Of a stretch of 49,415 nucleotides of DNA, positions 13,513 to 39,826 are shown in pieces. The translations under genes were made by a program, and so were the position numbers. Positions within the stretch are counted from its first letter, which is position 1. The number at the start of each line of letters is the position of its first letter. Source of the stretch: Candidatus Aphodocola excrementigallinarum (GTDB taxonomy: Bacteria; Bacillota_I; Bacilli_A; RF39; UBA660); the NCBI GenBank assembly GCA_018714855.1, contig DVMT01000027.1:1-49415 (forward strand). Direction: 5' to 3'. The notes under the pieces are model-generated. The model searched no databases. It was not told the origin of the DNA and saw only the letters and a list, made by a program, of their open reading frames with translations.

Positions 13513-13538
13513 AGGATGCATAAGTGCATCCTTTTTTT
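13511..13538. terminator. Bidirectional terminator between convergent genes
   Basis: AAAGGATGCA-TAAG-TGCATCCTTT plus T tract. Confidence 0.8.
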
Positions 13539-14478
13539 ATGTTAAAAAATTAGTTATCAAATTTATTAAAATATTCTTTTCATTGGGCTCAGATTCCGCG
13601 ATTAAAATAGTCAAAGCAGCTAATGTGTTGTTATCAATTATTTTTTTATTATTTTTATATAAAATGTCGTAAAACTGAAGAAAATATATAAATAATGTTG
13701 CTGCTATTCTTTTATTACCATCTATAAAAACATGATCTTTAACTATTAAATAAAGAAAATTAGCGGCTTTTTCTTCTAAACTATAATAAACTTCTTTACC
13801 ATCATAAGTCTGATATAACGTGTTTATTATACTTTTTAAGCCTTGACTTCTTTCCAAGGCAAATACATCACTTTCCTCATTAAATCTTAATGTATTTATT
13901 AAGTTTTTACAATCTTCATAAGTTATTACTTTATCACTTATGCTTTCTTTTTTTAATTTCACGTTCTTGTGATCATAATCATCTAATAAATTAAGTGCCT
14001 TAGAATAATCACCAATAACTTTTAATATGTGTTTTGCATCATCACTTTCTAATCTTTCATCTGCCCTATTAGCAATTTCAATTAGCTTAATGGTTTTTTC
14101 TAAATATTCTAATCTTTTATTATTAATTGCATAACCTTTTAATAAATAATCTTTAAGTACTTTGTTAGCCCAGCGTCTAAATGCTATACCACGTTTTGAT
14201 TTAACGCGATAACCAACACTTATTATCATATCAAGATTATAGTAATCTATGTTACGTGATACATCACGATTACCCTCTTTTTGAACTGTTGCAAATTTTG
14301 CAACAGCTGAATAATCCAACTCTTCTTTAAAAGCATTTTTTATATGGCGTGATATTACAGATTTATCTCTATTAAATAATTTTGCCATTTGATCAAGTGA
14401 TAACCAAACAGTATCATCTTTTAAATTCACTTCTAACTTTACATCTTCATCTTCAAATAAAATTATTTCGTTTTTCAA
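13537..14478 (-). CDS. RhuM/Fic-DOC family protein
   Basis: RhuM motifs (TVWLS, YNLDMIISVGYRVKS, FRRWA) plus Fic motif HVFIDGNKR; TTG start. Confidence 0.92.
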   Translation of the reverse strand: MKNEIILFEDEDVKLEVNLKDDTVWLSLDQMAKLFNRDKSVISRHIKNAFKEELDYSAVAKFATVQKEGNRDVSRNIDYYNLDMIISVGYRVKSKRGIAFRRWANKVLKDYLLKGYAINNKRLEYLEKTIKLIEIANRADERLESDDAKHILKVIGDYSKALNLLDDYDHKNVKLKKESISDKVITYEDCKNLINTLRFNEESDVFALERSQGLKSIINTLYQTYDGKEVYYSLEEKAANFLYLIVKDHVFIDGNKRIAATLFIYFLQFYDILYKNNKKIIDNNTLAALTILIAESEPNEKNILINLITNFLT

Positions 14479-14507
14479 ATTTATTCTCCTTTCCTATCTT
14501 TATTTTT
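14457..14507 (-). repeat. 51-bp direct repeat copy A (RBS + TTG start + first 7 codons of RhuM/Fic gene)
   Basis: 46/51 identical to 15410..15460 by manual alignment. Confidence 0.9.
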
Positions 14508-14516
14508 AAATATAAA

Positions 14517-15431
14517 TTATATAATCTTACTTATCTTATTCATTAATAAACCACAAACCTCATTATCTTGCATTAAAGTTATAGAAAAAGTTTTATAACC
14601 TATTCTATTTATGCTAGCACCACAATGATAGATTTTCTTATTATCTAATATGAAATATCTATCATGAAAAGTATTATCATAATAAACTTTTAAATTATGA
14701 TACTGATTATTATACCTTTCTATATCTTGCTTAGTTAAAAAGTTATTTGGTTTAGTTATAATTATTACATCTACTGTTAATTTTTTAATAATATCTAATA
14801 TCGTGTTATCTGCATAAGCATCAACTATTATTATCGTTTTAGTAGCCATTTTAAATATTTCTAATATTTTGTTATAAGCATCAAATATTTGTCCGTTAAA
14901 ATATATTTCGTTAACTTTTCTTTTTTCTTCTATCTTTTTAAATGAATCTTCTAAAGTTTTAATTTTAACATGATCTTCTAAAACTAAGTCATTTATATAT
15001 TTTTGTTCAATTAAATTACTTGAAATATATTTTCTTAATTCTACGAAAGCATCCATTATTCTTATACTAACTTCTTCTGCTACTTTTGTTCTAAGAACTG
15101 TTGCAAGCATTGCGACGCCCTGCTCAGTAAATGCATAAGGTAAAAATTTAGAATATTTACCTTGCTTTAATTCTAAGGTTTCAGATTGAAACCTTAGAAT
15201 TTGATAATACTCTTCTTTTGTTAATCTAAACATAAACCTTTCAGGAAACCTGTTTATATGTCTTTTAACTGCTAAATTAATTGTCTTTGTTCCATTAGCA
15301 CATTCATAAAGTCTTGCTAAATCACTATCTAACATGACTTGTTTTCCTCTTACTTCGTATATTAAATTTTCAACTACTTCCTCATTTTTATTTACATCTT
15401 TGCATTTTGATAAAATTATTTCGTTTTTCAA
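14517..15431 (-). CDS. ORF6N domain DNA-binding protein with C-terminal PLD-like (HDR) domain
   Basis: IYEVRGKQVMLDSDLA, RFPERFMF, PYAFTEQGVAML; C-terminal IVDAY...FHDRYFILD...CGAS; TTG start. Confidence 0.88.
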   Translation of the reverse strand: MKNEIILSKCKDVNKNEEVVENLIYEVRGKQVMLDSDLARLYECANGTKTINLAVKRHINRFPERFMFRLTKEEYYQILRFQSETLELKQGKYSKFLPYAFTEQGVAMLATVLRTKVAEEVSIRIMDAFVELRKYISSNLIEQKYINDLVLEDHVKIKTLEDSFKKIEEKRKVNEIYFNGQIFDAYNKILEIFKMATKTIIIVDAYADNTILDIIKKLTVDVIIITKPNNFLTKQDIERYNNQYHNLKVYYDNTFHDRYFILDNKKIYHCGASINRIGYKTFSITLMQDNEVCGLLMNKISKII

Positions 15432-15689: not shown

Positions 15690-16217
15690 CTAGCTTTTGC
15701 TAGCATCTTTTCCAGTAATTATATAATCTTCTCCTTTAAAAGGTTCCTTTGTTAATAAGTCATTATAATTTTGCTGTCTTAATACCTCATATACCATAAT
15801 CGCCGCACAATTAGATAAATTAAGTGCCCTTACTTTATTAGTCATTGGTATTCTAAGACAGTGATCTAAATCATCTTTTAATATTTCAAGTGGAATACCA
15901 GTTGATTCCTTTCCAAACACTAAATAAATATTTTCATTTTTATTACTATAATCAAACGACGTATGAGATTTCTTTCCATACCTAGTTAAATAATAAAACT
16001 TTCCTTTATTCTTACTTTTAAAATCTTCCCAATTTTCATACAAAGTATAATCACATTCGTTAATATAATTAGCACCACTTCTTTTTATATAACTTTCATC
16101 TAATGAAAATCCAAGTGGTTTAATTAAATGTAGCTTAGTATTAGTAGCAGCACAAGTACGCATTATATTACCAGTATTGCCTGGTATTTCTGGTTCATAT
16201 AAAACTACGTTAATCAC
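15690..16217 (-). CDS. trmL: tRNA (cytidine/uridine-34-2'-O)-methyltransferase TrmL
   Basis: LYEPEIPGNTGNI, FGKESTG, RIPM...RALNLSN SPOUT motifs. Confidence 0.95.
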   Translation of the reverse strand: MINVVLYEPEIPGNTGNIMRTCAATNTKLHLIKPLGFSLDESYIKRSGANYINECDYTLYENWEDFKSKNKGKFYYLTRYGKKSHTSFDYSNKNENIYLVFGKESTGIPLEILKDDLDHCLRIPMTNKVRALNLSNCAAIMVYEVLRQQNYNDLLTKEPFKGEDYIITGKDASKS

Positions 16218-16668
16218 CTATTACACTTCTTTCTTTAAATATCTCTTCAACTTCACTACTTTTATTTAAAGCACTTACATCGATTACGTCTTTTACTTCT
16301 GCATTTTCATAAAAAATAAGCTCCGGAGCATTTTGATAAAAAGGATCCGCAATTGTAGTTTCGTTTATGTTTATGTATATAATATCATTTTCTAAATTAT
16401 ACTCTTTTATAACTGGTATAAATATCTTTTCAAAATCAATTGTTTTTTCTTCACTACTATTTGATACATATATAATTGCACTAGGTTGTTCTATAACATG
16501 ATTTTCTATCTCATCATAGTTTATCTCCGTTAAATAATTACTAATATCAGATGTAGCAAGCGAATTATTTTCTTTGTTTTCATGTAATTTAAGTGCTATT
16601 ATAAGTACCGACAAAGTAACTACACATATTACCACTAGTAAAATAACTCTTTTAGTTTGTTCTTTCAT
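16210..16668 (-). CDS. Membrane-anchored thioredoxin-like protein without CxxC (hypothetical)
   Basis: N-terminal TM helix; IIYV...IIYIN...APELIFYENAEVKD resembles a thioredoxin fold; overlaps trmL start. Confidence 0.55.
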   Translation of the reverse strand: MKEQTKRVILLVVICVVTLSVLIIALKLHENKENNSLATSDISNYLTEINYDEIENHVIEQPSAIIYVSNSSEEKTIDFEKIFIPVIKEYNLENDIIYININETTIADPFYQNAPELIFYENAEVKDVIDVSALNKSSEVEEIFKERSVIGD

Positions 16669-16723
16669 AAATATTCTCCTTTATCATATTTATATTTTAA
16701 CACAATTATAAAAATGAATAAAG

Positions 16724-16753
16724 AAAAAACAAAAGAATTATAATCTTTTGTTT
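16724..16753 (-). terminator. Intrinsic terminator ending the T7SS operon
   Basis: AAACAAAAGA-loop-TCTTTTGTTT followed by T tract on the minus strand. Confidence 0.7.
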
Positions 16754-19700
16754 AATCTATATCAAGGATGTCTTCTTCTTCATCTTTATTAATTGAAAAA
16801 TCGCTTATGTATTTTACAAGTACTGGTTTTCCACGGTTTATTACAAATAAGAAATCATCATCGATAGATTCTTTAATTTCAGGAGTTCTAACGGATATTT
16901 TCAAGGTGAATTGATCATTTATACCATCACCAATAAAGATTCCATCATTTGGATTAACACCATCTTTAAACCAAGATTCATACTCATATTTTTTAATCTT
17001 ATCTATACTATCTACCAAGATAAAATTAATAATTCCAAGATCTTTTGCCTTTGTAAAGAAATCATTAGCTTTTGCTTTATTATCACTTGATAATTTTGAA
17101 ATAAAGTCTTCTATACCATTAATTACTAATAAAATTGGTTTTTGATTTCTTAAAACAGATATATTATAACCATTTTGAACATATAAATTATAACAATCAA
17201 CTTGGTATTTTAATAATTTTTCAAATATTTGATTATAGTCATTTTTTTCAACCGCTAAATTTGACATTGTATTATCATTTATCTCAACCGCTTCAGAATC
17301 TATTAACATAGTTTGATAAGCAGTGTTTAATTTTAATTCATTTAATAAAGCATTAACAAAATTTGTCATTACAAAACAATCATTAGCAGTTACAATATTT
17401 ATTAAATTCTTTTTAAAGTTGTATGTAGAAACATTAAGATCCTTCTTTTCAATACCTATTATTACATCAAAACTATTTTGATCGTAACTTTCTTCTACTG
17501 ATTCATAAGTTACTTTTAAAGGAAGTACCGGTACGTGTTTAGCCTTTATATTATATTTAGAATTAGTTTCAGATATTTTAGCTTCAATCGTCTCATTTAT
17601 TTTTTCGTTTGTATCCACTGATGCTGTTTGAAATTCATAAACCGCATCTTGCTTTATTATACCTCTTCCAAATATCTTAGATGGATAGTTTTTACCTACG
17701 TTACCTAATATAGTTGAGTAATCATCATCATTGTTTTGTTGCAATGAATAAATAAGTGAGAAATTCTGTTTTAATTTAAATCTTAATCCGTTAGGTGTAT
17801 TACAAGTAATAAAGAAATATATTCCATACTTAGTACACTCTCTTGTTATAACGTTTAATGTATCTTCATATTTTTCATAAGTATCTTGATATGCTTCATA
17901 GTTATTAATTATAACAACTATACTAGGTTCTTTTTTACCACTTTTCAAATTATAATTGAAGAAATTACCACCGTAACTACTAAATAAAGATTTTCTTTTT
18001 TCCATTAAACTATTTATCATTTTATATAAATTACCTATTTTTTCTTCTTCATCAATTTGAATTACATCACCAACGTAATTAGATGTATCATATATTTTAA
18101 GTACTTCTGCACCAAAGTCTAATATATAAAAGTTTATTTCTTCCGTGCTATATAAACACATTGATGAATAAATCATGGTCATTATAAAATTTTCTTTACC
18201 AGAACCGGTAGCACCATACAAAAGCGTATTACCACGCGCGCTTATTGGTACTGTTAAAATATTTTGTTTTTGTTCTTGAGGAACATCATATTCACCTACC
18301 GGAATATCAATAATATTGGCCTTAGGTTTAAAGTTATACTTAGATATTAAATTAACGATGTTAATAAAACTAGGTATTTTATCAAGCCATAATGGTTTGC
18401 ATTTAATCTTTTGTTCTTTAGCTATATCCGCCAAATAATTAACAACGTTTGATAATTCCTCTCCGTATTTTTTCTCATCTTTATTTACTTTCTTTTCTCT
18501 TGTTGCAACGTTTTTAATAACTTGTCCAACATTATTAATAAAATTAATCGCGGTATCTATAGGTTTTTTAGTCTTTTCTTTTGGAACATATTTTCCTCCT
18601 GCCCAAGCAGCTTGTCCTAAAGTAAACACTTCATTATAACCAACCTGAAAGTAAAACCTACCAGTTTGTTTTAAATAAGCAGCATCAGGACATTTAATAA
18701 CCTCGTTTGAATCACTTTTATCTTGAACTCTTAGACATACCCTAAACCTTGTGTTTGACCAAATCTGAGGATCAACAACACCACTTGGTTTTTGAGTTGC
18801 AAGTATTAAGTGAACACCAAGTGAACGACCTATACGAGCGGTAGAAATAAGTTGTTCCATAAATTCTGGTTGCTGTGTTTTAAGTTCAGCAAACTCATCA
18901 CTTATAATAAACAAATGTGATACCGGTTCATCTACTTTCTTTTCTCTATATAACCTTTGATATTTATATATATCAACCGTTGATTCACCAGTTTTATCCC
19001 TTGCGATGTTAAATAATCTTTGTCTTCTTTTTAATTCACTTTCAATAGAAGATAAACTTCTTTTTATCTCACTTGCATCAAGGTTCGTTATCGTACCTAC
19101 TAAGTGAGGTAATTTTTTACCAGAATTAGCATTTTCAAAAGCACCAGCAAGTCCTCCACCTTTGTAGTCAATTAATATAAATTGTACTTCATACGGATTA
19201 TAGTTAACCGCTAAAGACAAAATATAAGTAATGATAAATTCTGATTTACCAGAACCTGTCATACCTGCGACAAGCCCATGCGGACCATGTGCTTTTTCAT
19301 GTAAATCAATGTACTGAATTTCATTATTCTTTCCATAACCAACCGGAGTTGAAAGCGACTCCATAGGATTGCTTTTTTGCCATCTGTTAAGTGAGTTTAA
19401 CTGCTGTACTTTACCTACGTCATACATCTCTAAAAAGCCTACTTTATCTGGTATTTTAGCAACTGAGTTATTAGCGGTTTCAATAGGAATATTAGATAAT
19501 ACTTTGTAGCATTCATTATAATTAATGCCACTTATTAAGTCTATTATAAACTTTTGGTTTTCCTCATTTATAACGTTCTTAGAAAGCTCACCTGATGCAG
19601 CATCAACGGTTATAAAACTCTTACATTGTTCTGGAAGCGTTGATATGTTTCCATTTGAAATTAACAAACTAAAACCATAATTTACTTTTGACTCAAGTAA

Positions 19701-21410
19701 ATCATTAATAAAATCCTGACTTCTTACCATCTTAAAAGAATCAGTTATAACAAGATAAATCTTATCAAATGAATGAGGATTTAAATCCCTTTGGTTTGAC
19801 GCTTCTTTTCTCGCGTTAAATATCTTTTCTAGATATGAACAAACTATGTTATATTCCTCACTTTTAGAAGCAAATAAACGAATCGTTTTATCATCGTCAA
19901 AACAGTGTGGTAAATTCTTTATGTTTTCCCAAGTGTTTTTCTTATCATTATCAGTTAAAATAACTATTTTCAAATCTATATAACTATGGAAAGTTATTAT
20001 CTGAAACAAAAGTTTCTTCAAATAATCACTTCTATTATCATACTGACCAATTATAGAAGATATATAATTATCCATAAAAGAATATACAACAGGAACGTTT
20101 TTTAGTATCTTTGGCTCACGACTTAACTTATCCGCAACATCTTTAAGTTCATCTTCAACCATAGAAAATGACTCTTCAGGATAAGTTATTTTAAGCTTCA
20201 TAGGATAACTCCCAAAACCTAAACTGACTTTTAAAAAGTCTTCATCTTCTATTCTTTTTTGCCATAATACCGTTTCTTTATCAAGTATTATTTTGTTACA
20301 AGTAAGTAAATTAGGATAATTACGATTTAAAATATCAGTTTGATTATTTAATTCATCAATAATTTGCTTTCTTTTACCCTCAATATACTTAGTGTATTTA
20401 TCTATTCTTTCCTGTTCTTTTTTCTTTCTTCTTTTATTTTCAAACTTTCTTGTAATGGTTGGCCATAAAAGCGTCGATGCAACCATTGCAATAGACATAA
20501 CTATAGAAGGAAGTGCAGAAAGCATAGATGAATTACCACTTCTTAAATTTGCAATCGAAGTAAATGCCATAACCATTGATGACATACTCATAGTAAGCAT
20601 TGGTCCAACAGTTAAAATAACTGGCATATCTTGCTCTGGTTCTTTAGCAGGTGGAGCATCTATTTTTATTTCCTTTTCATTTAATTCAGATACAAAGCGG
20701 GGTGTTTTATGAAAATAATCATCATCTTTATACCACTTCATATCAATGTCTTCATCAGCTTCATTAAAACTATCTTCCACGTTATCATAATTAACCGTTG
20801 TAAGACCATTTACCATTAAACTATTACCATAATAATAAATGTTTAACTTAGCATTATACTGATACTTCATATAAACTATCTTTAAACCATTTATAAAGAT
20901 AACGTCTCCATACTCTAAAGCCTTTTTATCAAAAACCCTTAAATTATTTACATAAACACCATACCTATTAGAAGTAGCATATAAAAAATATTTACCGTTT
21001 TCAAAGACTAACTTTGCCTGATTCTGATCTAATCTATTAAATACAACGTTATTGTTGTTAGTACTACCGATAGATATAACAGGAGTTTGATTGGGATTAA
21101 CATAATAATCCACCATCTTATCATCATAAGAAGGAGCAACATAAATTAACATAGATTCATTAGTAGACGCATTTCTAACAGTATAAAAAGAGTATTCCTT
21201 TAAATCAAAAGCCGCTATATAATCATTATTAAAAACACAATAAAACTCCTGATTACTAATAAGCCTCCAAAGCCCATTTTCCTCAGTTATATTAAGTAAA
21301 TTAACCTCTTTACCAGCATCATCATAATCAGTAACCCAAAAGTTACCAGATGGCTCATCTGGTATATTTATACTTCTTATTCTATCCCTTTTTATTAATG
21401 AAACCCGCAT
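16752..21410 (-). CDS. essC: Type VII secretion ATPase EssC (YukB-like)
   Basis: N-terminal FHA-like region, two TM helices, [52 protein letters not shown], further FtsK-like domains. Confidence 0.96.
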   Translation of the reverse strand: [1552 protein letters not shown]

Positions 21411-21425
21411 TTTTACTCCTCCGTT

Positions 21426-21737
21426 TTACTTGACTTGATCATTTATATTAGTAAATTCAAAATTTCCTTTAAATAATTCATAATCCGTTAATTTATCATA
21501 TAGTTTAAAGGCTTCATCATCTGTAAAACCAATATCACTTATATATGCCGAAAAATTAGCTGATAAGTTACTCATTTTTTCGTTATATTCTTTATAACCA
21601 TTACCATCCCAATGTTCATTTTTATCTAAATCATTCACAATATTCTTAATATTATTAATACACGTTAACAACTCATTAGAAAAATAATTAAAGTAATCAT
21701 AAAGTTCTAATATTGTATTATAATCCATCTGTTGCAT
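21426..21737 (-). CDS. WXG100-like protein (second gene of pair 3), atypical C-terminus
   Basis: 103 aa, central WDG, N-terminal similarity to 24377..24667 and 23675..24004. Confidence 0.7.
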   Translation of the reverse strand: MQQMDYNTILELYDYFNYFSNELLTCINNIKNIVNDLDKNEHWDGNGYKEYNEKMSNLSANFSAYISDIGFTDDEAFKLYDKLTDYELFKGNFEFTNINDQVK

Positions 21738-21748
21738 AACTAATCACC

Positions 21749-22033
21749 TCAATCCGTTATAGGTTTATCATATGATTCTTTTAAAGCATCATATATGTCA
21801 TAAACTTTACTCAAAAAAGTATAATAATTATTAAGTTCACTTTCATATTTTTTTAAATCAACCAAAACATCATCATATTTTTTTAAAAAACTAGTCGCAT
21901 CATCACCTTGCCAACTTTGATTAACTACATCTAAATAAAGCTTGATTAGATTTATATTATCACTGATTTTATCTATGTTTTCTTTTATTGATGTAGCATC
22001 TTGGTTTAACTTATCAGATACAGCTATCTTCAC
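21749..22033 (-). CDS. WXG100 family protein (first gene of pair 3)
   Basis: WQGDDA motif; start reset to GTG 22033 downstream of GGAGG (MREVSS in the track is the translated RBS). Confidence 0.85.
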   Translation of the reverse strand: MKIAVSDKLNQDATSIKENIDKISDNINLIKLYLDVVNQSWQGDDATSFLKKYDDVLVDLKKYESELNNYYTFLSKVYDIYDALKESYDKPITD

Positions 22034-22102
22034 ACTACTAACCTCCCTCACAAAAAAAATGTTAATTATAACATTCTTTTGTCAAAGAGTTTAATAACTC
22101 TT
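22029..22102 (-). repeat. Double-hairpin + RBS leader, copy A
   Basis: Highly similar to 24301..24378; hairpins AAGAGTT-ATTA-AACTCTT and ACAAAAGAATGTTA-TAAT-TAACATTTTTTTTGT, then GAGGGAGGTTAGTAGT-start. Confidence 0.9.
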
Positions 22103-22106
22103 TTAA

Positions 22107-23651
22107 CTATTTATTTATAATTTCTTTTACACTAACCCAATTATTTGATGAAGCATTTGTGTTATTTAAATTTATAGCAACTTGTGCTTCATTAACATCA
22201 TATTTTTCACAGAATTCTCGAAATGACATATTACTTGCAAGTTCTGCATTTGAAACATTACCATTTTCATTTATCACAGCAAAACCTCTAACATTAGGAT
22301 TATTATCAATATATTGTGAAATGATTTCATTTGCAGTTTTATTAATAGATGGCCTTTGAGTTTCAGTAGTAGTAACTTTATCATTAGAAGAATTAATTTT
22401 AACTTGTTCTGTTGCTAATTCTTCCTGATTTTCATTTAATTCATTAACGCTTATCCAAGCTTGAGAAGTACCATTTTTATCAGATACGTCAACCGCAACT
22501 CTTCCTATATCAACACCATACTTTTCGCAGTATTCTTGTAGTGATAAGCCATCCGCTCTTTCAATATTGGATACCGTACCATCTTCATTTACTATAGCAA
22601 AACTTTTAAATTTTGAATTATCACTATTAACATATTTATTAATTAAATTACGTGTATCTCTTGCATTAACTGCATCAGCTGCTGACATATGTCCTTTGCT
22701 GACATCAAAATTACCAACTGAAGAACCAATCCTTATATCTGGATATTTAACCTCTTCAACTTTTGCGTTGCTTGCTAATTCATCATCTGAAACTCTGCCA
22801 GGTACCTTTGAAACATTTAATGCAGAATTAGTTTTATCTATTAAAATAAGTTCTGGCATAGTTGACTCTTGACTAGAATAGCCTGATGGACTACCACCGT
22901 TAGCAACGTTAGTACTTGAATAAACTGCTTTTAAAACATTTATTATTTCACTCCATTTATTTAAAATTATAGAATTGTTTTCTTTCATATAATGAAAAAT
23001 TTGATTAATTACATTTTTAAGAATTACAATAACATCGTTATCACATGAATATATATAACCGCTTTCAAACTCATCTATATATTTTGATTGTAATTCACGT
23101 GATAAATCCTCAAAATCATTATAATAGTTTTCGATTTTATCAATATTATAAATCCTATTATCTGTTGAAGAAGATGATAAAGAACCAGGATTTCCTTTTA
23201 AAGCATATCTATTAAAGATATCTATTAATTTCTGTTTTAATTCATTTTTTTTGTTTAAGGCATTGTTATACTCTTTTTTTAAAGAAGCATGCGTACGTCT
23301 TTGATTAGCATCATCATATTGTGCAGCATAAGGAGCACTTGTTTGTAAACTATTACTATTTTCAAAATTATAAAGTGCCATCTTCTTTTCACCAGAAATT
23401 ACCGCTTGCTTTTTATATTCATCTAAATTTGGTAGTGCATCAATACAGTTTTGTAAATACACTCTAAAATCATTAATAAACATTTCTTGACTAGCAATAG
23501 CATCTACTATTACGCTTTTGGTTATGCCAGTCCAAAAAGAATCTTTTAAATTGGAATTCAAATCGAAAAGTTTGTTAAAAAATTTGTCTAATGTTAACAA
23601 GTATTCTAAATCTTCTAAAACGCTATTTTTACTTACATCCTCTAATTTCAT
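22107..23651 (-). CDS. Putative T7SS substrate/effector: helical WXG/LXG-like N-terminus, linker, tandem ~72-aa C-terminal domain
   Basis: FWTG motif near N-terminus, position after a WXG100 pair, internal duplication aa ~336-408 vs ~443-514. Confidence 0.65.
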   Translation of the reverse strand: MKLEDVSKNSVLEDLEYLLTLDKFFNKLFDLNSNLKDSFWTGITKSVIVDAIASQEMFINDFRVYLQNCIDALPNLDEYKKQAVISGEKKMALYNFENSNSLQTSAPYAAQYDDANQRRTHASLKKEYNNALNKKNELKQKLIDIFNRYALKGNPGSLSSSSTDNRIYNIDKIENYYNDFEDLSRELQSKYIDEFESGYIYSCDNDVIVILKNVINQIFHYMKENNSIILNKWSEIINVLKAVYSSTNVANGGSPSGYSSQESTMPELILIDKTNSALNVSKVPGRVSDDELASNAKVEEVKYPDIRIGSSVGNFDVSKGHMSAADAVNARDTRNLINKYVNSDNSKFKSFAIVNEDGTVSNIERADGLSLQEYCEKYGVDIGRVAVDVSDKNGTSQAWISVNELNENQEELATEQVKINSSNDKVTTTETQRPSINKTANEIISQYIDNNPNVRGFAVINENGNVSNAELASNMSFREFCEKYDVNEAQVAINLNNTNASSNNWVSVKEIINK

Positions 23652-23674
23652 AAGACACCTCCATTATGTTAATT

Positions 23675-24004
23675 TTATAAATTATTATTGTTGTTAGACC
23701 AAGTAGTAACTTGATTATAATTATCTATAAAGTTATTCATTTTTTTATCCGTAGTTTTATAATTATCAGCAGCTGTCTTAAGATTGTTAATACAAGGCTC
23801 TAAATATACATTAATTATATCTTCAAACAAATCACAATTCTTCTTTAAATTATCACAGAAATAATCATTTGACCCATCAAATATGTTTTTTACTTTTTTT
23901 CTTACTTGTTTTATTCCATCCATGTCATCTAAAATTTGCTTTTTTAAGTTTTTAGTTTCTTCATAAAGTTCATTTACCTGTTCATAATTAATTTCAGTTT
24001 GCAT
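23675..24004 (-). CDS. WXG100-like protein (second gene of pair 2)
   Basis: 109 aa, helical, FDG in place of WxG, C-terminal YKTTD (YxxxD). Confidence 0.7.
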   Translation of the reverse strand: MQTEINYEQVNELYEETKNLKKQILDDMDGIKQVRKKVKNIFDGSNDYFCDNLKKNCDLFEDIINVYLEPCINNLKTAADNYKTTDKKMNNFIDNYNQVTTWSNNNNNL

Positions 24005-24014
24005 AAAAATCCTC

Positions 24015-24305
24015 CTAACGAGTTATATTAAGCCTAGTTCCTAATTTTTCTTCGATTTGTTTAAAAATAATATCGTAATGTGATAAATAATAATGATAAA
24101 GTAACATAACATTATAAAAAGTATCAATGTAAGGATAACATCTATTAAACGCATTTAACACACTTGTTGCATCATCACCTTTCCACACAGATGATAAAGA
24201 ATCAAATCTTTCTTTTAATTGATTTGTTTTTGAATGAATGCTTTCAATGCGTTCCTTCATTTGTGCACTTAATTGTATAAATTCACTATCAGATATTAGC
24301 TTCAT
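24015..24305 (-). CDS. WXG100 family protein (first gene of pair 2)
   Basis: WKGDDA motif; start reset to ATG 24305 after GGAGG. Confidence 0.85.
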   Translation of the reverse strand: MKLISDSEFIQLSAQMKERIESIHSKTNQLKERFDSLSSVWKGDDATSVLNAFNRCYPYIDTFYNVMLLYHYYLSHYDIIFKQIEEKLGTRLNITR

Positions 24306-24378
24306 ACTACTAACCTCCCTCACAAAAGAATGTTAAAATTAGCATTCTTTTGTCAAAAAGTTTAATTATTAAACTCTT
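24301..24378 (-). repeat. Double-hairpin + RBS leader, copy B
   Basis: Highly similar to 22029..22102. Confidence 0.9.
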
Positions 24379-24667
24379 ATTTTTGACCTGATACTGCTCT
24401 ATCAACTGCTTGATATCTAGCAACTGTATTCTTAAGATATGTAGAACAATCAGTTATAGCTTCATAGAATTCATGAAATTTTGCAGCCAAAGTATTAAAT
24501 TCCGCTTTAGCTTGTTCAGCAGCGTCTCCACTCCATACTCCATCAGTTCCTACCTTATCCATTTCAGGCTTAATAGATTCTTCTAATAAAGATTGCATAG
24601 AACTAGCTTTTTGTCCTAACTGATCTGCTATACTACTTATTTCTGTATAAGATAATCCTGAGAACAT
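24377..24667 (-). CDS. WXG100 family protein (second gene of pair 1)
   Basis: 96 aa, VWSGDAA, C-terminal YQAVD (YxxxD). Confidence 0.9.
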   Translation of the reverse strand: MFSGLSYTEISSIADQLGQKASSMQSLLEESIKPEMDKVGTDGVWSGDAAEQAKAEFNTLAAKFHEFYEAITDCSTYLKNTVARYQAVDRAVSGQK

Positions 24668-24677
24668 TTTATCCCTC

Positions 24678-24965
24678 CTACTTTATTGTGTTTTCTTCCA
24701 TTGCTTTTTGGTATGCGTTACCTACTTGGATTAAATATGATCCAACTTCATCAATTGTTTGTTGCAACTTATTCATTACTTGTGCTTGTTCTGTTATTTC
24801 ACTAGTATATTTTGTTGCATCATCACCTTGCCAACTTCTTTTCAAACTATCATTAAGATTTTGAATTTCACCTAATAACTTTTTGAAATCTCCAGCATAG
24901 TTTTGAATAGCAGTTCCAGTTTGTCTTGTTTTTTCATAATCAATGTTTAAACTAGTCATTGCCAT
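24678..24965 (-). CDS. WXG100 family protein (first gene of pair 1)
   Basis: 95 aa, SWQGDDA, helix-turn-helix hairpin pattern. Confidence 0.92.
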   Translation of the reverse strand: MAMTSLNIDYEKTRQTGTAIQNYAGDFKKLLGEIQNLNDSLKRSWQGDDATKYTSEITEQAQVMNKLQQTIDEVGSYLIQVGNAYQKAMEENTIK

Positions 24966-24979
24966 AACCTTTCACCTCC

Positions 24980-25228
24980 TTATACCATCATTATTCGTGC
25001 CCCGTTTTTTATTCCGCTGTCTTTGACGTATACGTTGTTTGAATATTCCATGCCAGTGTCTATATCAAAAAAAAGATACGTTTTTTCCTTAAGTATTCCT
25101 CCAGATAATTCATGGATACTTTTTATAACGTACTTCTTTATGGTACCCATTTTCTTATTAATAGGTATAAACAAATCAAAATTTTGTTCTATAGACGGAA
25201 CTTCAATTGAAATAAGTAACTTATTCAT
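24980..25228 (-). CDS. EsaB/YukD ubiquitin-like T7SS protein
   Basis: 82 aa, FDLFIP...SGIKNGARIMMV ubiquitin-like pattern; first gene of the WXG100/essC operon. Confidence 0.82.
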   Translation of the reverse strand: MNKLLISIEVPSIEQNFDLFIPINKKMGTIKKYVIKSIHELSGGILKEKTYLFFDIDTGMEYSNNVYVKDSGIKNGARIMMV

Positions 25229-25291
25229 TCATATACGCCTCCATGTGCATAACCGTAAAAGAAGCATACCTGTCTATCTTTTACTATGTTA

Positions 25292-25346
25292 ATAATAACA
25301 TCCCCACGTCTTTCGGTCAATATTTTCTGTCTTTTTATGGAAAAAA
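25292..25346 (-). promoter_or_regulatory. Sigma-A-type promoter of the T7SS operon (TTGACC-17-TATTAT, extended TG) including copy 2 of the motif shared with 7262..7298
   Basis: -35 at 25320-25315 and -10 at 25297-25292 on the minus strand. Confidence 0.7.
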
Positions 25347-25395: not shown

Positions 25396-25421
25396 AAAAA
25401 AAGAAGCCTTATGACTTCTTT
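25396..25421 (-). terminator. Intrinsic terminator after the HerA gene
   Basis: AAGAAGTC-ATAA-GGCTTCTT-TTTTT. Confidence 0.75.
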
Positions 25422-27411
25422 AGTACCATAATCTTGATACATCAACGTTCTGACTCATTGGTTGTGGATATGGCATTTCTAACTTAACAATTGTTGGAAG
25501 CTTGAATGCTGATCCAAACACAACACAAGTACCAGGCTGTAATCCTTTCATTTTTTCTACTATCTCATCGGTTATGAAAGGCACCATCTGTTTAATAAAC
25601 TGCACGTCTTTAGGATGCTGCATTTTAAATATTAAAAAGTTAGAGCACTGTGATAATACGGTTTCACTCATCTCTGAAGGTCTTTGTGAGATGAGTCCTA
25701 AAATAACACCGTACTTTCTTCCTTCTTTTGCAATTCTATCAAATATGTTATATCCAAGTATTTTAGTATCAGAATCTTGTTGTACGTAACGGTGTGCTTC
25801 TTCTAATATTAAGTGTACTGGAAATGATCCTCTTTGTTGAAGTTTAGACGTAAAGTCAAATAATAATTTTGCATATATCTTACATATTGTTTTTGCAAGT
25901 CTATCATCTAGATAACTTATGTTTATATTAATTATTTGAGCTCGTGCGCCATTAGGGGCCGTAATTAGCTCTTTTATAAAGGTTTGTTTATCAATGTATT
26001 TATCAACCTTAAAATACTCAGCGTATTCACCCTTAATTAAAGAGTCTAACCTTACTTTAAGTACGTTTGCTTTATCATATAGTTTATCACTTTTTAAAAT
26101 ACCTTCTGATATTAAAGCAAATTCAAATGCCTCTCTTAGGTTTTCTAAGGTAAAAGGAATCGTTCCATCTGGTAATTCTAGTTTTAAGTCATCGTTTATA
26201 AATTTCTTTATAAATTCTGTTACAAGCTGCATCTCCCCTATTTTACCTTCTTTATCAATTATTAAACATTGTCTTAAGCTTCTTATGTAACCAGGTTGTG
26301 CAATAGGTGTTTCTAAGTTTAAATCCGGTGTGTTAAAAGACGTTAATATTGCAAATATCTGGTCATGTATCTGTGATGCACTGCCGCCGGAATATAAAAC
26401 CTCTAGTATTGCTTTTGCAATTATATCGTTTTTATAAACCTTGGTTTCTTCTTCATTTCCAGAAAACACGGTAACTAATCTTAAGGCTTTTTCAATTATT
26501 GGTAATTGGGTTGGATCCTCGGCTTCAAGCAAAAGAGCAAAATCATCAACGTCTAAAAGCCATAAAGGTAATTTTATTAAAGAATTTGGATTTGTTCTTA
26601 CGTTCGTCGAATATCTTTTAAATTGAACGCTACTATTTGGAATCGATAAAGCACTTTCATACTCACCATAAGCATCAAATATAAACACGCAGGCGTTTCT
26701 TGGAGCTTGATTAGTGTTAAAGAAAATGTTTTGAAATATTCTTGCAACACCACAAGACTTACCAGAACCAGTATTTCCAAAAATAGCAAAATGGTTACTA
26801 AAAAACGTGTTAGTAGGAACGTAAGCAGGGGTATTATTATAAAGTGGCATAGTACCTATTAATACCTTTTTAAGTACGTTATTTTGATCATCTACCACGA
26901 TCATTTTAGTTTCTTCATCAGTTGCGGCAAAGCACCTATTACCAATTGATGGCTTAGTAAGTACTCCAGGAACAAACCTTACGCCTTGTATTTCTCCTAT
27001 TAACGTTATTTGTCCACTGTCCTGGTTTAAACTTATTAAGGTTCCAACTATTCTTTGGTTTGTATTAGTTACAAAAATAACATGATGATCAAGCAAATTC
27101 TTTTCAAAAGCTAAAGAAGAAGTAACTTTAATTGTTACGCTATCAACCCCAACGTTTTGTACGATACCAATTTCATTTGGCATAGGCTGATAAACTGGTT
27201 CTTGAGGCTTATCATCTTGCTTACTAGTATCTATGCTACCTACATCATCAGTTTCTACTTTCTCTTCCCTGCTTTTTTCATCTTCATTATTTTCACTTGC
27301 ATTTAAATCAGTTTTTTCCTCTTCATTTAAATCATCAGATAAAACATTATCCTCGTTTATTTCTTCAACGTCTTCAATTGTGTCTAATTCATTATCTTGC
27401 ATGTTTTTCAC
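25420..27411 (-). CDS. HerA/DUF87 family ATPase with acidic N-terminal extension
   Basis: HFAIFGNTGSGKS, IFDAYGEY, LEEAHRY, IAKEGRKYG, SQRPSE, SQCSN. Confidence 0.92.
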   Translation of the reverse strand: MKNMQDNELDTIEDVEEINEDNVLSDDLNEEEKTDLNASENNEDEKSREEKVETDDVGSIDTSKQDDKPQEPVYQPMPNEIGIVQNVGVDSVTIKVTSSLAFEKNLLDHHVIFVTNTNQRIVGTLISLNQDSGQITLIGEIQGVRFVPGVLTKPSIGNRCFAATDEETKMIVVDDQNNVLKKVLIGTMPLYNNTPAYVPTNTFFSNHFAIFGNTGSGKSCGVARIFQNIFFNTNQAPRNACVFIFDAYGEYESALSIPNSSVQFKRYSTNVRTNPNSLIKLPLWLLDVDDFALLLEAEDPTQLPIIEKALRLVTVFSGNEEETKVYKNDIIAKAILEVLYSGGSASQIHDQIFAILTSFNTPDLNLETPIAQPGYIRSLRQCLIIDKEGKIGEMQLVTEFIKKFINDDLKLELPDGTIPFTLENLREAFEFALISEGILKSDKLYDKANVLKVRLDSLIKGEYAEYFKVDKYIDKQTFIKELITAPNGARAQIININISYLDDRLAKTICKIYAKLLFDFTSKLQQRGSFPVHLILEEAHRYVQQDSDTKILGYNIFDRIAKEGRKYGVILGLISQRPSEMSETVLSQCSNFLIFKMQHPKDVQFIKQMVPFITDEIVEKMKGLQPGTCVVFGSAFKLPTIVKLEMPYPQPMSQNVDVSRLWY

Positions 27412-39752: not shown

Positions 39753-39826
39753 GCAGGTGTAGTTTAATGGTAGAACCACAGCCTTCCAAGCTGTATACGG
39801 GAGTTCGATTCTCCTCACCTGCTCCA
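39753..39826 (+). tRNA. tRNA-Gly (anticodon TCC)
   Basis: Acceptor stem GCAGGTG/CACCTGC, anticodon arm ACAGC-CTTCCAA-GCTGT, T-loop TTCGATT, encoded CCA. Confidence 0.97.

Follow-up and report, generated by a model that had tools for sequence, protein, structure and literature searches.

A pared-down, probably working relative of the T7SSe secretion systems in a family of gut-dwelling Bacilli

Which parts of a T7SS (type VII secretion system) form the channel, and which scaffold or regulate it, is the question raised by an operon of Candidatus Aphodocola excrementigallinarum. The operon lies in a stretch of 49,415 nucleotides (here the window; contig DVMT01000027.1 of assembly GCA_018714855.1), which is an entire contig, C5, of a metagenome-assembled genome (MAG) of 1.18 Mb in 65 contigs, 94% complete, with about 27% G+C and translation table 11. 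Nine intact open reading frames (ORFs) follow one another on the minus strand from 25228 to 16752, with intergenic gaps of 10–55 nucleotides, and encode, in order, proteins of 82; 95 and 96; 102 and 109; 514; 100 and 103; and 1552 amino acids. The original prediction, made from the sequence alone, took them for a stripped-down or new T7SS without EssA, EssB and EsaA. Can such an operon serve secretion with the ATPase EssC as its only membrane protein? We consider it probable that it can: the operon appears to be a working, pared-down system of the T7SSe kind, either reduced to a WXG100 pair, the ubiquitin-like protein TsxB and the ATPase EssC/TsxC, or never having grown beyond them. The original idea is supported in this refined form, as a pared-down T7SSe relative.

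The last gene of the operon, essC/tsxC (16752–21410, minus strand like all nine), encodes the 1552-residue protein, in which an N-terminal FHA region is combined with a pair of membrane helices and with ATPase domains. It scores 1039.5 bits against the EssC model TIGR03928 (cut-off 778.4), its FtsK/SpoIIIE domains match PF01580 (E 1.7e-45), and Pfam gives a weak FHA match at residues 113–171. The hydropathy scan of the nine proteins confined membrane segments to EssC, in agreement with the original prediction, which had named it the sole membrane protein. The first gene, tsxB (24980–25228), encodes the 82-residue ubiquitin-like protein of the YukD/EsaB class, and is followed by the genes for WXG100 protein A1 (24678–24965; 95 residues, motif WQG) and WXG100 protein A2 (24377–24667; 96 residues, motif WSG). 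Their PF06013 scores are 44.4 and 37.5 bits, respectively, against a cut-off of 27.3 bits. The phmmer counterpart of A1 in T7SSe-like loci is their first WXG gene; that of A2 is the second, at E values down to 2e-11 for A2. Of the YxxxD tails that the original prediction had linked to paired WXG100 genes, reading of the translations places one on A2 (YQAVD) and none on A1.

The absence of EssA, EssB and EsaA was confirmed by genome-wide profile searches, which found no homologue. PF10140, the EssB/YukC family, has no match in the window's genome, and the N-terminal EsaA model TIGR03929 has a best E value of 1.18. The best match to the EssA model PF10661 (22.8 bits, cut-off 24.1) sits inside the ORF of a PrkC-like kinase and was rejected. 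We also built our own hidden Markov models (HMMs) of EsaA, EssA, EsaB and EssB from 9–11 canonical clusters in other families of the same class, where the canonical order WXG, EsaA, EssA, EsaB, EssB, EssC was recovered as a positive control. Among the 3589 ORFs of at least 40 amino acids in the window's genome, the EsaA and EsaB models matched none, the 82-residue protein included; the best EssB match (E 0.013) is a polytopic transporter-like ORF, and the best EssA match (E 7e-4) is a 105-residue hydrophobic ORF on another contig, in a search where so short and hydrophobic a family is hard to exclude fully. A phmmer search of the genome with the EsaA of genome G026 gave no match either.

The same pattern extends through the relatives. 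EssC exceeds its cut-off in 17 of 24 other genomes of the genus, with YukC in 0 of 24, and in a sample of the order (201 genomes, 199 of them from the window's family, 98 genera) EssC does so in 104 genomes from 56 genera and YukC in none of the 201. In a sample of the class, YukC is over its cut-off in 13 of 200 genomes, none of them among the 20 from the window's family. DUF6382 (PF19909) likewise stays below its cut-off in all 201 genomes of the order, the window's own included. Sub-cut-off matches to YukC (15 genomes) and DUF6382 (6 genomes) are short, several with stop codons, and were set aside as noise.

Could the operon nevertheless be a T7SSb of the usual kind, with EssB, EsaA and EssA too divergent to be recognised? 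Its EssC passes the NCBIfam equivalog cut-off and carries an N-terminal FHA region as in T7SSb; that region lacks the phosphothreonine-binding residues in both. A free-standing YukD/EsaB-like protein is a further shared trait, as are the DUF4176 chaperone-type and immunity-like genes that accompany LXG-like cargo in the relatives, and the nearest solved structure to the window's EssC is YukB of Bacillus subtilis (9qks, 413.8 bits, aligned over residues 203–1002). However, the operon has no unassigned ORF and no free space in which such proteins could hide, and no second protein with a membrane segment; it has a WXG100 pair in place of the single EsxA, and its 82-residue protein escapes the canonical EsaB model. 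The phylogeny also argues against this explanation. In a FastTree tree of 66 EssC sequences, the 8 that are linked to EssB are split from the other 58, the window's among them, by a branch with a local support of 100, so that the EssC is not nested within T7SSb. Its identity to EssB-linked EssC is 29–32%, versus 38–41% over the full length to T7SSe-like EssC from Clostridia MAGs, Neobacillus, Fredinandcohnia and Bacillus timonensis. We give a disguised T7SSb almost no credence.

The closest known relative, judged by sequence comparison, is therefore to be sought elsewhere in the Bacillota, in the subtype T7SSe, and not in T7SSb or actinobacterial ESX, the two yardsticks of the original prediction, which had regarded a WXG100 pair as an actinobacterial trait; T7SSe itself has one. 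The subtypes T7SSc–j were described by Garrett, Higginson and Palmer in microLife in 2024 (PMC11217815, whose main text is the source used here), and within the literature found their names are used in detail only there. According to that text, the near-universal parts of a T7SS are TsxA (WXG100), TsxB (ubiquitin-like) and TsxC (ATPase), and variants without EssA, EssB and EsaA exist, so their absence alone is less surprising than it first appears. A Neobacillus T7SSe cluster is named in the same text, and our comparison loci (Neobacillus, Fredinandcohnia, Bacillus timonensis and Clostridia; L095–L135) match the T7SSe component list given there: EssC, a YukD-like protein (18.7–22.7 bits), two WXG proteins, a DUF6382 protein with an FHA domain, a PP2C phosphatase, a membrane Ser/Thr kinase that in Neobacillus has TPR repeats, and a large immunoglobulin (Ig)-like membrane protein. 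The window's operon shares with them the non-identical WXG100 pair, the small ubiquitin-like TsxB encoded next to the ATPase, the FHA-bearing EssC and an LXG-type cargo with small WXG-like partners. It differs in gene order, with tsxB and the WXG pair upstream of essC, and in lacking the kinase (TseD), the phosphatase (TseF), the DUF6382-FHA protein (TseJ) and the Ig-like wall protein (TseI). Since T7SSe is the right comparator, these four absences are informative as well.

The missing T7SSe parts were searched for with phmmer, using the kinase, PP2C, DUF6382-FHA and Ig-like proteins as queries. Homologues were found in the T7SSe-like loci, and in none of the window-type loci save one, which has a kinase and PP2C nearby. 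No TseJ match was found in the window's genome, and the TseI-like queries from Neobacillus and Clostridia matched neither this genome nor the loci of the lineage. Clustering of the same-strand EssC neighbours points the same way: TseJ-, TseI-, PP2C- and kinase-like families recur beside T7SSe-like EssC, and across the 58 loci of the lineage (some of them duplicates) EssC and the cargo are the only shared membrane families. For TseH and TseK, for which no family profile was used, the operon holds no candidate membrane ORF and the lineage's clusters share no small membrane family.

The FHA region of EssC mirrors this loss. The phosphothreonine-binding motif reads G-R, S-x-x-H, N-G in the T7SSe-like clade and G-S, D-x-x-Q, Y-G in the window's EssC. 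After two rows were dropped for gaps, it is complete in all 37 unique T7SSe-like sequences and incomplete in all 57 unique window-type sequences, none of which combines the Arg, Ser and His of the pocket; the 8 T7SSb rows do not carry it either. At least one TseD, TseF, TseI or TseJ homologue accompanies 36 of the 37 complete motifs, the exception standing on a 10.9-kb contig, while the one locus with a kinase and PP2C nearby is the only such case among the 57. From these alignments, the loss of the pocket fits the loss of a module of kinase, phosphatase and FHA adaptor.

How the pared-down form arose could be read in two ways. The window's EssC falls in a clade of 28 rows from uncultured small-genome Bacilli, which is the sister of a clade of 20 rows that contains the Bacillaceae and Clostridia sequences (local support 96) and is not nested inside it. 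When T7SSb is taken as the root, clusters of the pared-down form surround the T7SSe clade as a grade. The simple form could be ancestral, or the extra parts could have been lost repeatedly; the FastTree topology and the root settle neither.

Two other subtypes deserve comparison. T7SSg of Acetivibrio and Paenibacillus is also relatively simple, with two WXG100 proteins, TsgB, TsgC and one extra part (main text of PMC11217815). In contrast to the window's EssC, TsgC is described there as lacking FHA domains; TsgL (DUF5050, PF16472) has no match in the window's genome, and no Tad pilus genes were noted beside the cluster, although no model search was made for them. The actinobacterial T7SSa/ESX systems share a heterodimer-style WXG100 pair with a YxxxD tail on one member, and the fold of TsxB matches the N-terminal domain of EccD (TMq 0.76). 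Conversely, EccB (PF05108) and EccD (TIGR03920) have no match in the genome (EccE and mycosin were not searched), EccC lacks the FHA region according to the same main text, and the host is a monoderm relative of the Bacillota. Within the incomplete literature coverage, we found no T7SS of this architecture and none reported from this lineage.

The 82-residue protein has no direct Pfam or NCBIfam match, and the YukD model matches nothing in the genome. It resembles a gene of 83–90 residues adjoining EssC in T7SSe-like loci (phmmer, E 1e-6 to 2e-12); 33 of the 53 members of its family match Pfam YukD (E at most 0.1, best 1.3e-7), and its family profile aligns with 11 canonical EsaB sequences at 94.4% probability (hhalign, E 9.4e-8). 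AlphaFold2 models it with a pLDDT of 96.1 and a pTM of 0.83 from the 53-row alignment, and with a pLDDT of only 43.1 from the single sequence. Foldseek aligns the model with ubiquitin, NEDD8, a bacterial ubiquitin-like protein and the ubiquitin-like domains of EccD (7np7, 7npt, 4kv2) at TMq 0.74–0.76; a profile search of PDB sequences returned ubiquitin-like matches only, none of them significant (E 0.3–0.8). On the YukD matches within the family, the EsaB alignment and the predicted ubiquitin fold, we assign the protein to the TsxB/EsaB/YukD class, as the original reading of a yukD-like gene had it, with a C-terminus (...ARIMMV) that lacks Gly-Gly.

Does this protein contact EssC? In B. subtilis, YukD is bound to YukB at the FHA and DUF regions and at a hairpin in the first of its ATPase domains, as reported in a preprint by Oka et al. 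(10.1101/2025.01.24.634720). We predicted the complex of the 82-residue protein with EssC residues 1–700 from purpose-built alignments. It reached an ipSAE of 0.67 (best control 0.00), a mark reached by 58 of 80 solved complexes and by 2 of 110 mismatched pairs. At least 77% of the contacts agree between runs, the partner pLDDT is at least 80, and the predicted contacts fall on EssC residues 94–226, 495–499 and 632–640. Because a similar YukB–YukD complex has already been solved, this pass may reflect likeness rather than binding by this particular copy.

On this basis we propose the following mechanism. EssC hexamers alone would form the membrane channel, and TsxB would stabilise the assembly by clamping EssC at its FHA and DUF regions. 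The WXG100 heterodimer, with the YxxxD tail on A2, would dock on the ATPase domains and be exported, and the 514-residue LXG-like protein would be exported with the pairs of WXG-like and helical partners that flank it. Secretion, the sufficiency of EssC as a channel and the action of the cargo are inferred. In the T7SSb of B. subtilis, the YukB/EssC hexamer is the central channel and dimers of YukC/EssB form a peripheral crown (Oka et al.). A further claim is more tentative, and we hold it with somewhat less than even confidence: that an EssC hexamer with TsxB might be a complete export machine in a walled Gram-positive cell, all other core parts of T7SSa, T7SSb and T7SSc–j, such as EssB, EsaA, EssA, EccB/D/E, the kinases and the Ig-like wall proteins, being accessories that serve regulation, stabilisation or the passage of the wall.

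The candidate cargo (22107–23651) is the 514-residue protein, in which a C-terminal domain follows an LXG-like targeting region. The protein lacks membrane segments and belongs to no Pfam or NCBIfam family. Its residues 167–268 match the N-termini (residues 3–108) of proteins of 917–1231 residues at the same position in relatives, and its residues 229–513 match the C-termini of proteins of 1191 and 1446 residues. Through these matches of the targeting region and the C-terminal domain to the relatives' large proteins, we regard it as the putative cargo. Comparison of the C-terminal domain with a protein structure atlas gave no usable lead (TM at most 0.37). By eye, residues ~337–514 appear to hold two modules of ~75 residues, which a blastp self-comparison did not report. 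Directly after the genes for the 1191-residue (genome G023) and 1446-residue (G013) proteins that share this domain comes essC, with no small immunity-like gene between.

Two pairs of small genes flank the cargo gene. Upstream lie the genes for a WXG100-like protein (24015–24323; 102 residues, PF06013 25.0 bits, E 2.3e-5, below the cut-off) and a helical protein (23675–24004; 109 residues, containing YKTTD, with no significant family match). Downstream are those for a second WXG100-like protein (21749–22051; 100 residues, motif WQG, PF06013 20.6 bits, E 5.4e-4, below the cut-off; NF035934, E 3.6e-7) and a second helical protein (21426–21737; 103 residues, motif WDG, its only match being TIGR03930 at E 0.011). 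The six WXG100-like genes originally counted are accordingly two true members, two sub-threshold ones and two helical partners without a significant match; all four WXG100 matches of the genome lie in this operon. By its position, and by analogy with the LXG systems in the main text of PMC11217815, the 102-residue protein is probably a Lap-like targeting partner of the cargo. The pairing of the 109-residue protein with it, and of the 103-residue protein with its own neighbour, suggests a partner role for both.

In the relatives, window-type clusters hold an additional helical protein of ~142 residues, a DUF4176 protein (95.9 bits) and a protein of 917–1492 residues, often with a small downstream gene, in one case for an ADP-ribosylglycohydrolase. 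That gene (L023:8364-9569, genome G012; 221.1 bits) directly follows the gene for a 1231-residue candidate toxin, which suggests an ADP-ribosylating toxin with its immunity gene. Such clusters match the usual layout of LXG-type polymorphic toxins, namely a toxin with partners, chaperone and immunity protein, as set out in the main text of PMC11217815.

Might the operon instead be what is left of a fuller T7SS, decaying or silent and no longer secreting anything? The window's cluster is indeed without the DUF4176 gene and the ~142-residue helical gene that most relatives of its cluster type (type A) carry, and its cargo has 514 residues compared with the 917–1492 in relatives. However, the nine ORFs are intact, and the operon is under purifying selection. 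Relative to L062, the closest relative with the whole operon, the ratio of nonsynonymous to synonymous substitution rates (dN/dS) is 0.087 for essC, 0.067 for tsxB, 0.17 for A1, 0.18 for A2 and 0.40 for the 514-residue protein; relative to L057 it is 0.070 for essC. The retention of EssC (104 of the 201 genomes in the order sample, 56 of its 98 genera) also speaks against decay, as do RNA-library contigs over the first three genes and over parts of essC. We therefore regard a remnant as very improbable.

The stretch is found in animal-gut metagenomes: 19 runs from nine studies hold some part of it, half or more of its sampled words are present in 15, and one chicken-gut run covers all 30 of its 30 bins. 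Each of two metatranscriptomic libraries from the same study has one contig (886 and 894 nucleotides) over 24387–25270, where tsxB and the WXG pair lie, and shorter ones over parts of essC. The interval 22368–23983 has no RNA contig in these two libraries (X17, X19), which is uninformative either way. The mean word depth of the 24387–25270 contig is 22.8 and 15, with neighbours at ~1–6 and a DNA run flat at ~5–12. The depth hints that the first three genes are strongly expressed, although contig depth cannot rank genes.

The operon had been described as one promoter-to-terminator unit. Directly after the essC stop codon (16720–16752, minus strand) lies an AU-rich hairpin with a U-run that resembles an intrinsic terminator (9-bp stem AACAAAAGA/UCUUUUGUU, then UUUUUCUUU; folding z = -2.62). 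A consensus terminator scan reported none after essC because the stem has too few G-C pairs. The promoter candidate (25292–25320, minus strand, sigma-70-like: TTGACC, a 17-nucleotide spacer and TATTAT, with TG) is a consensus match only. Sites of this kind number 68 in the window against a mean of 75.8 in shuffled sequences, and being no commoner than by chance they make the candidate weak evidence. It comes after a terminator-like hairpin (25421–25400) that closes the upstream HerA-like gene, and the RNA contigs over the first genes start at 25270 and 25255.

Throughout the genus, the cluster always lies between a gene for a HerA-like DUF87 ATPase and one for a 152-residue membrane protein, followed by trmL. 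The flanks are directly adjacent, with the site empty, in the EssC-less genomes G002 and G004, and other small inserts occupy the site in G003 and G005. This marks the flanking genes as core and the T7SS genes as a set that is gained and lost together. For the same reason, the HerA-like ATPase and the 152-residue protein were rejected as dedicated T7SS parts. In the window, the ATPase gene (25420–27411, minus strand; 82.6 bits) encodes a long acidic N-terminal extension; it is a core gene at the island site also without a T7SS, and a NurA-like partner was not noted. The 152-residue single-pass protein (16210–16668, minus strand) overlaps the start of the SpoU/TrmL-type methyltransferase gene, matches no family and occurs in every genus member examined, whether EssC is present or not.

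Does the system work with the help of a partner encoded outside the island, in the scaffold or wall-spanning role of EssB and EsaA or of TseD and TseI? Candidates would be a housekeeping PrkC-like kinase and PP2C pair, the neighbouring 152-residue protein or an unrecognised core membrane protein. A wall-less, Mollicutes-like host would need no wall-spanning part, and this was considered and rejected: the genome has six penicillin-binding protein (PBP; transpeptidase) matches and MraY. The host has a cell wall, and the cargo must therefore cross peptidoglycan, which it would have to do without an EsaA- or TseI-like protein. Along with this difficulty, several points weigh against a self-sufficient EssC. 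According to the main text of PMC11217815, all characterised T7SSs use further membrane parts; the genome's only PrkC-like kinase and PP2C pair stands at C57:2310-4783, and a recruited core or housekeeping membrane protein would escape sequence searches. The EssC tree was made with FastTree only, and its T7SSb references are drawn from one class; the comparison loci were labelled T7SSe from the main text of PMC11217815. The RNA contigs reveal neither the level nor the strand of expression, nor whether there is one transcript, and they may stem from carried-over DNA. A gene could also be missing from an assembly of 65 contigs that is 94% complete, though the lineage-wide pattern makes a gap unlikely as the sole explanation of the absent parts.

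Of the possible outside partners, the 152-residue protein is encoded directly downstream of essC throughout the genus. However, it and the HerA-like neighbour are adjacent also where EssC is missing, and it stands beside EssC in 15 of the 58 loci, all of the window's genus and none of any other. The decayed FHA pocket of EssC speaks against coupling to a kinase, and the gain and loss of the island as a unit at a hot spot speaks against a partner outside it. A system that depends on an outside partner thus seems to us rather unlikely, though it is the alternative that we take most seriously, and we retain the self-contained, T7SSe-like operon as the probable reading.

The genus site holds more than one kind of cluster. 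There are two cluster types, whose EssC proteins are ~39% identical, and some genomes carry both in tandem (EssC pairs in G013, G023, G014 and G017). The second type (L036:2713-11575 in G015; also L027, L028–L031, L035 and L037–L039) lies at the same hot spot in the order EssC (~1530 residues), a TsxB-like gene, six small helical genes and a protein of ~570 residues with an N-terminal membrane anchor and a HEIEH (HExxH-type) motif. Beside the island in the window, two adjacent ORFs of 313 and 304 amino acids (13537–15431, minus strand), present in G003 and G011 and as fragments in G012 and G007, resemble a second small variable insert. The sole Rfam match of the window is one tRNA gene (39753–39823, plus strand).

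Bacilli-type EssC also turned up in MAGs labelled by their submitters as Muribaculaceae, Bacteroidaceae or Eggerthellaceae (L062, L064, L066, L074, L083, L087, L102, L124 and L125), which are probably bins with a wrong label. NCBI places a relative, 'Candidatus Faecisoma', in Mycoplasmatota incertae sedis.

The significance of the operon lies in its economy. EssC, TsxB and the WXG100 pair are a natural minimal construct for testing whether EssC suffices as a channel, and at under 6 kb their four genes lend themselves to heterologous reconstitution and cryo-EM. Were there a hidden partner instead, its discovery would give the T7SS a new component. If EssC and TsxB do suffice, the gut lineage would preserve a natural minimal form of the system, or may even represent the ancestor from which T7SSe was built. 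Roughly one in two sampled genomes of a large family of gut dwellers has the system, which is conserved under purifying selection, and uncultured bacteria with genomes of only ~1.1 Mb devote ~8 kb to machinery that probably delivers toxins by contact, which bears on competition in animal guts.

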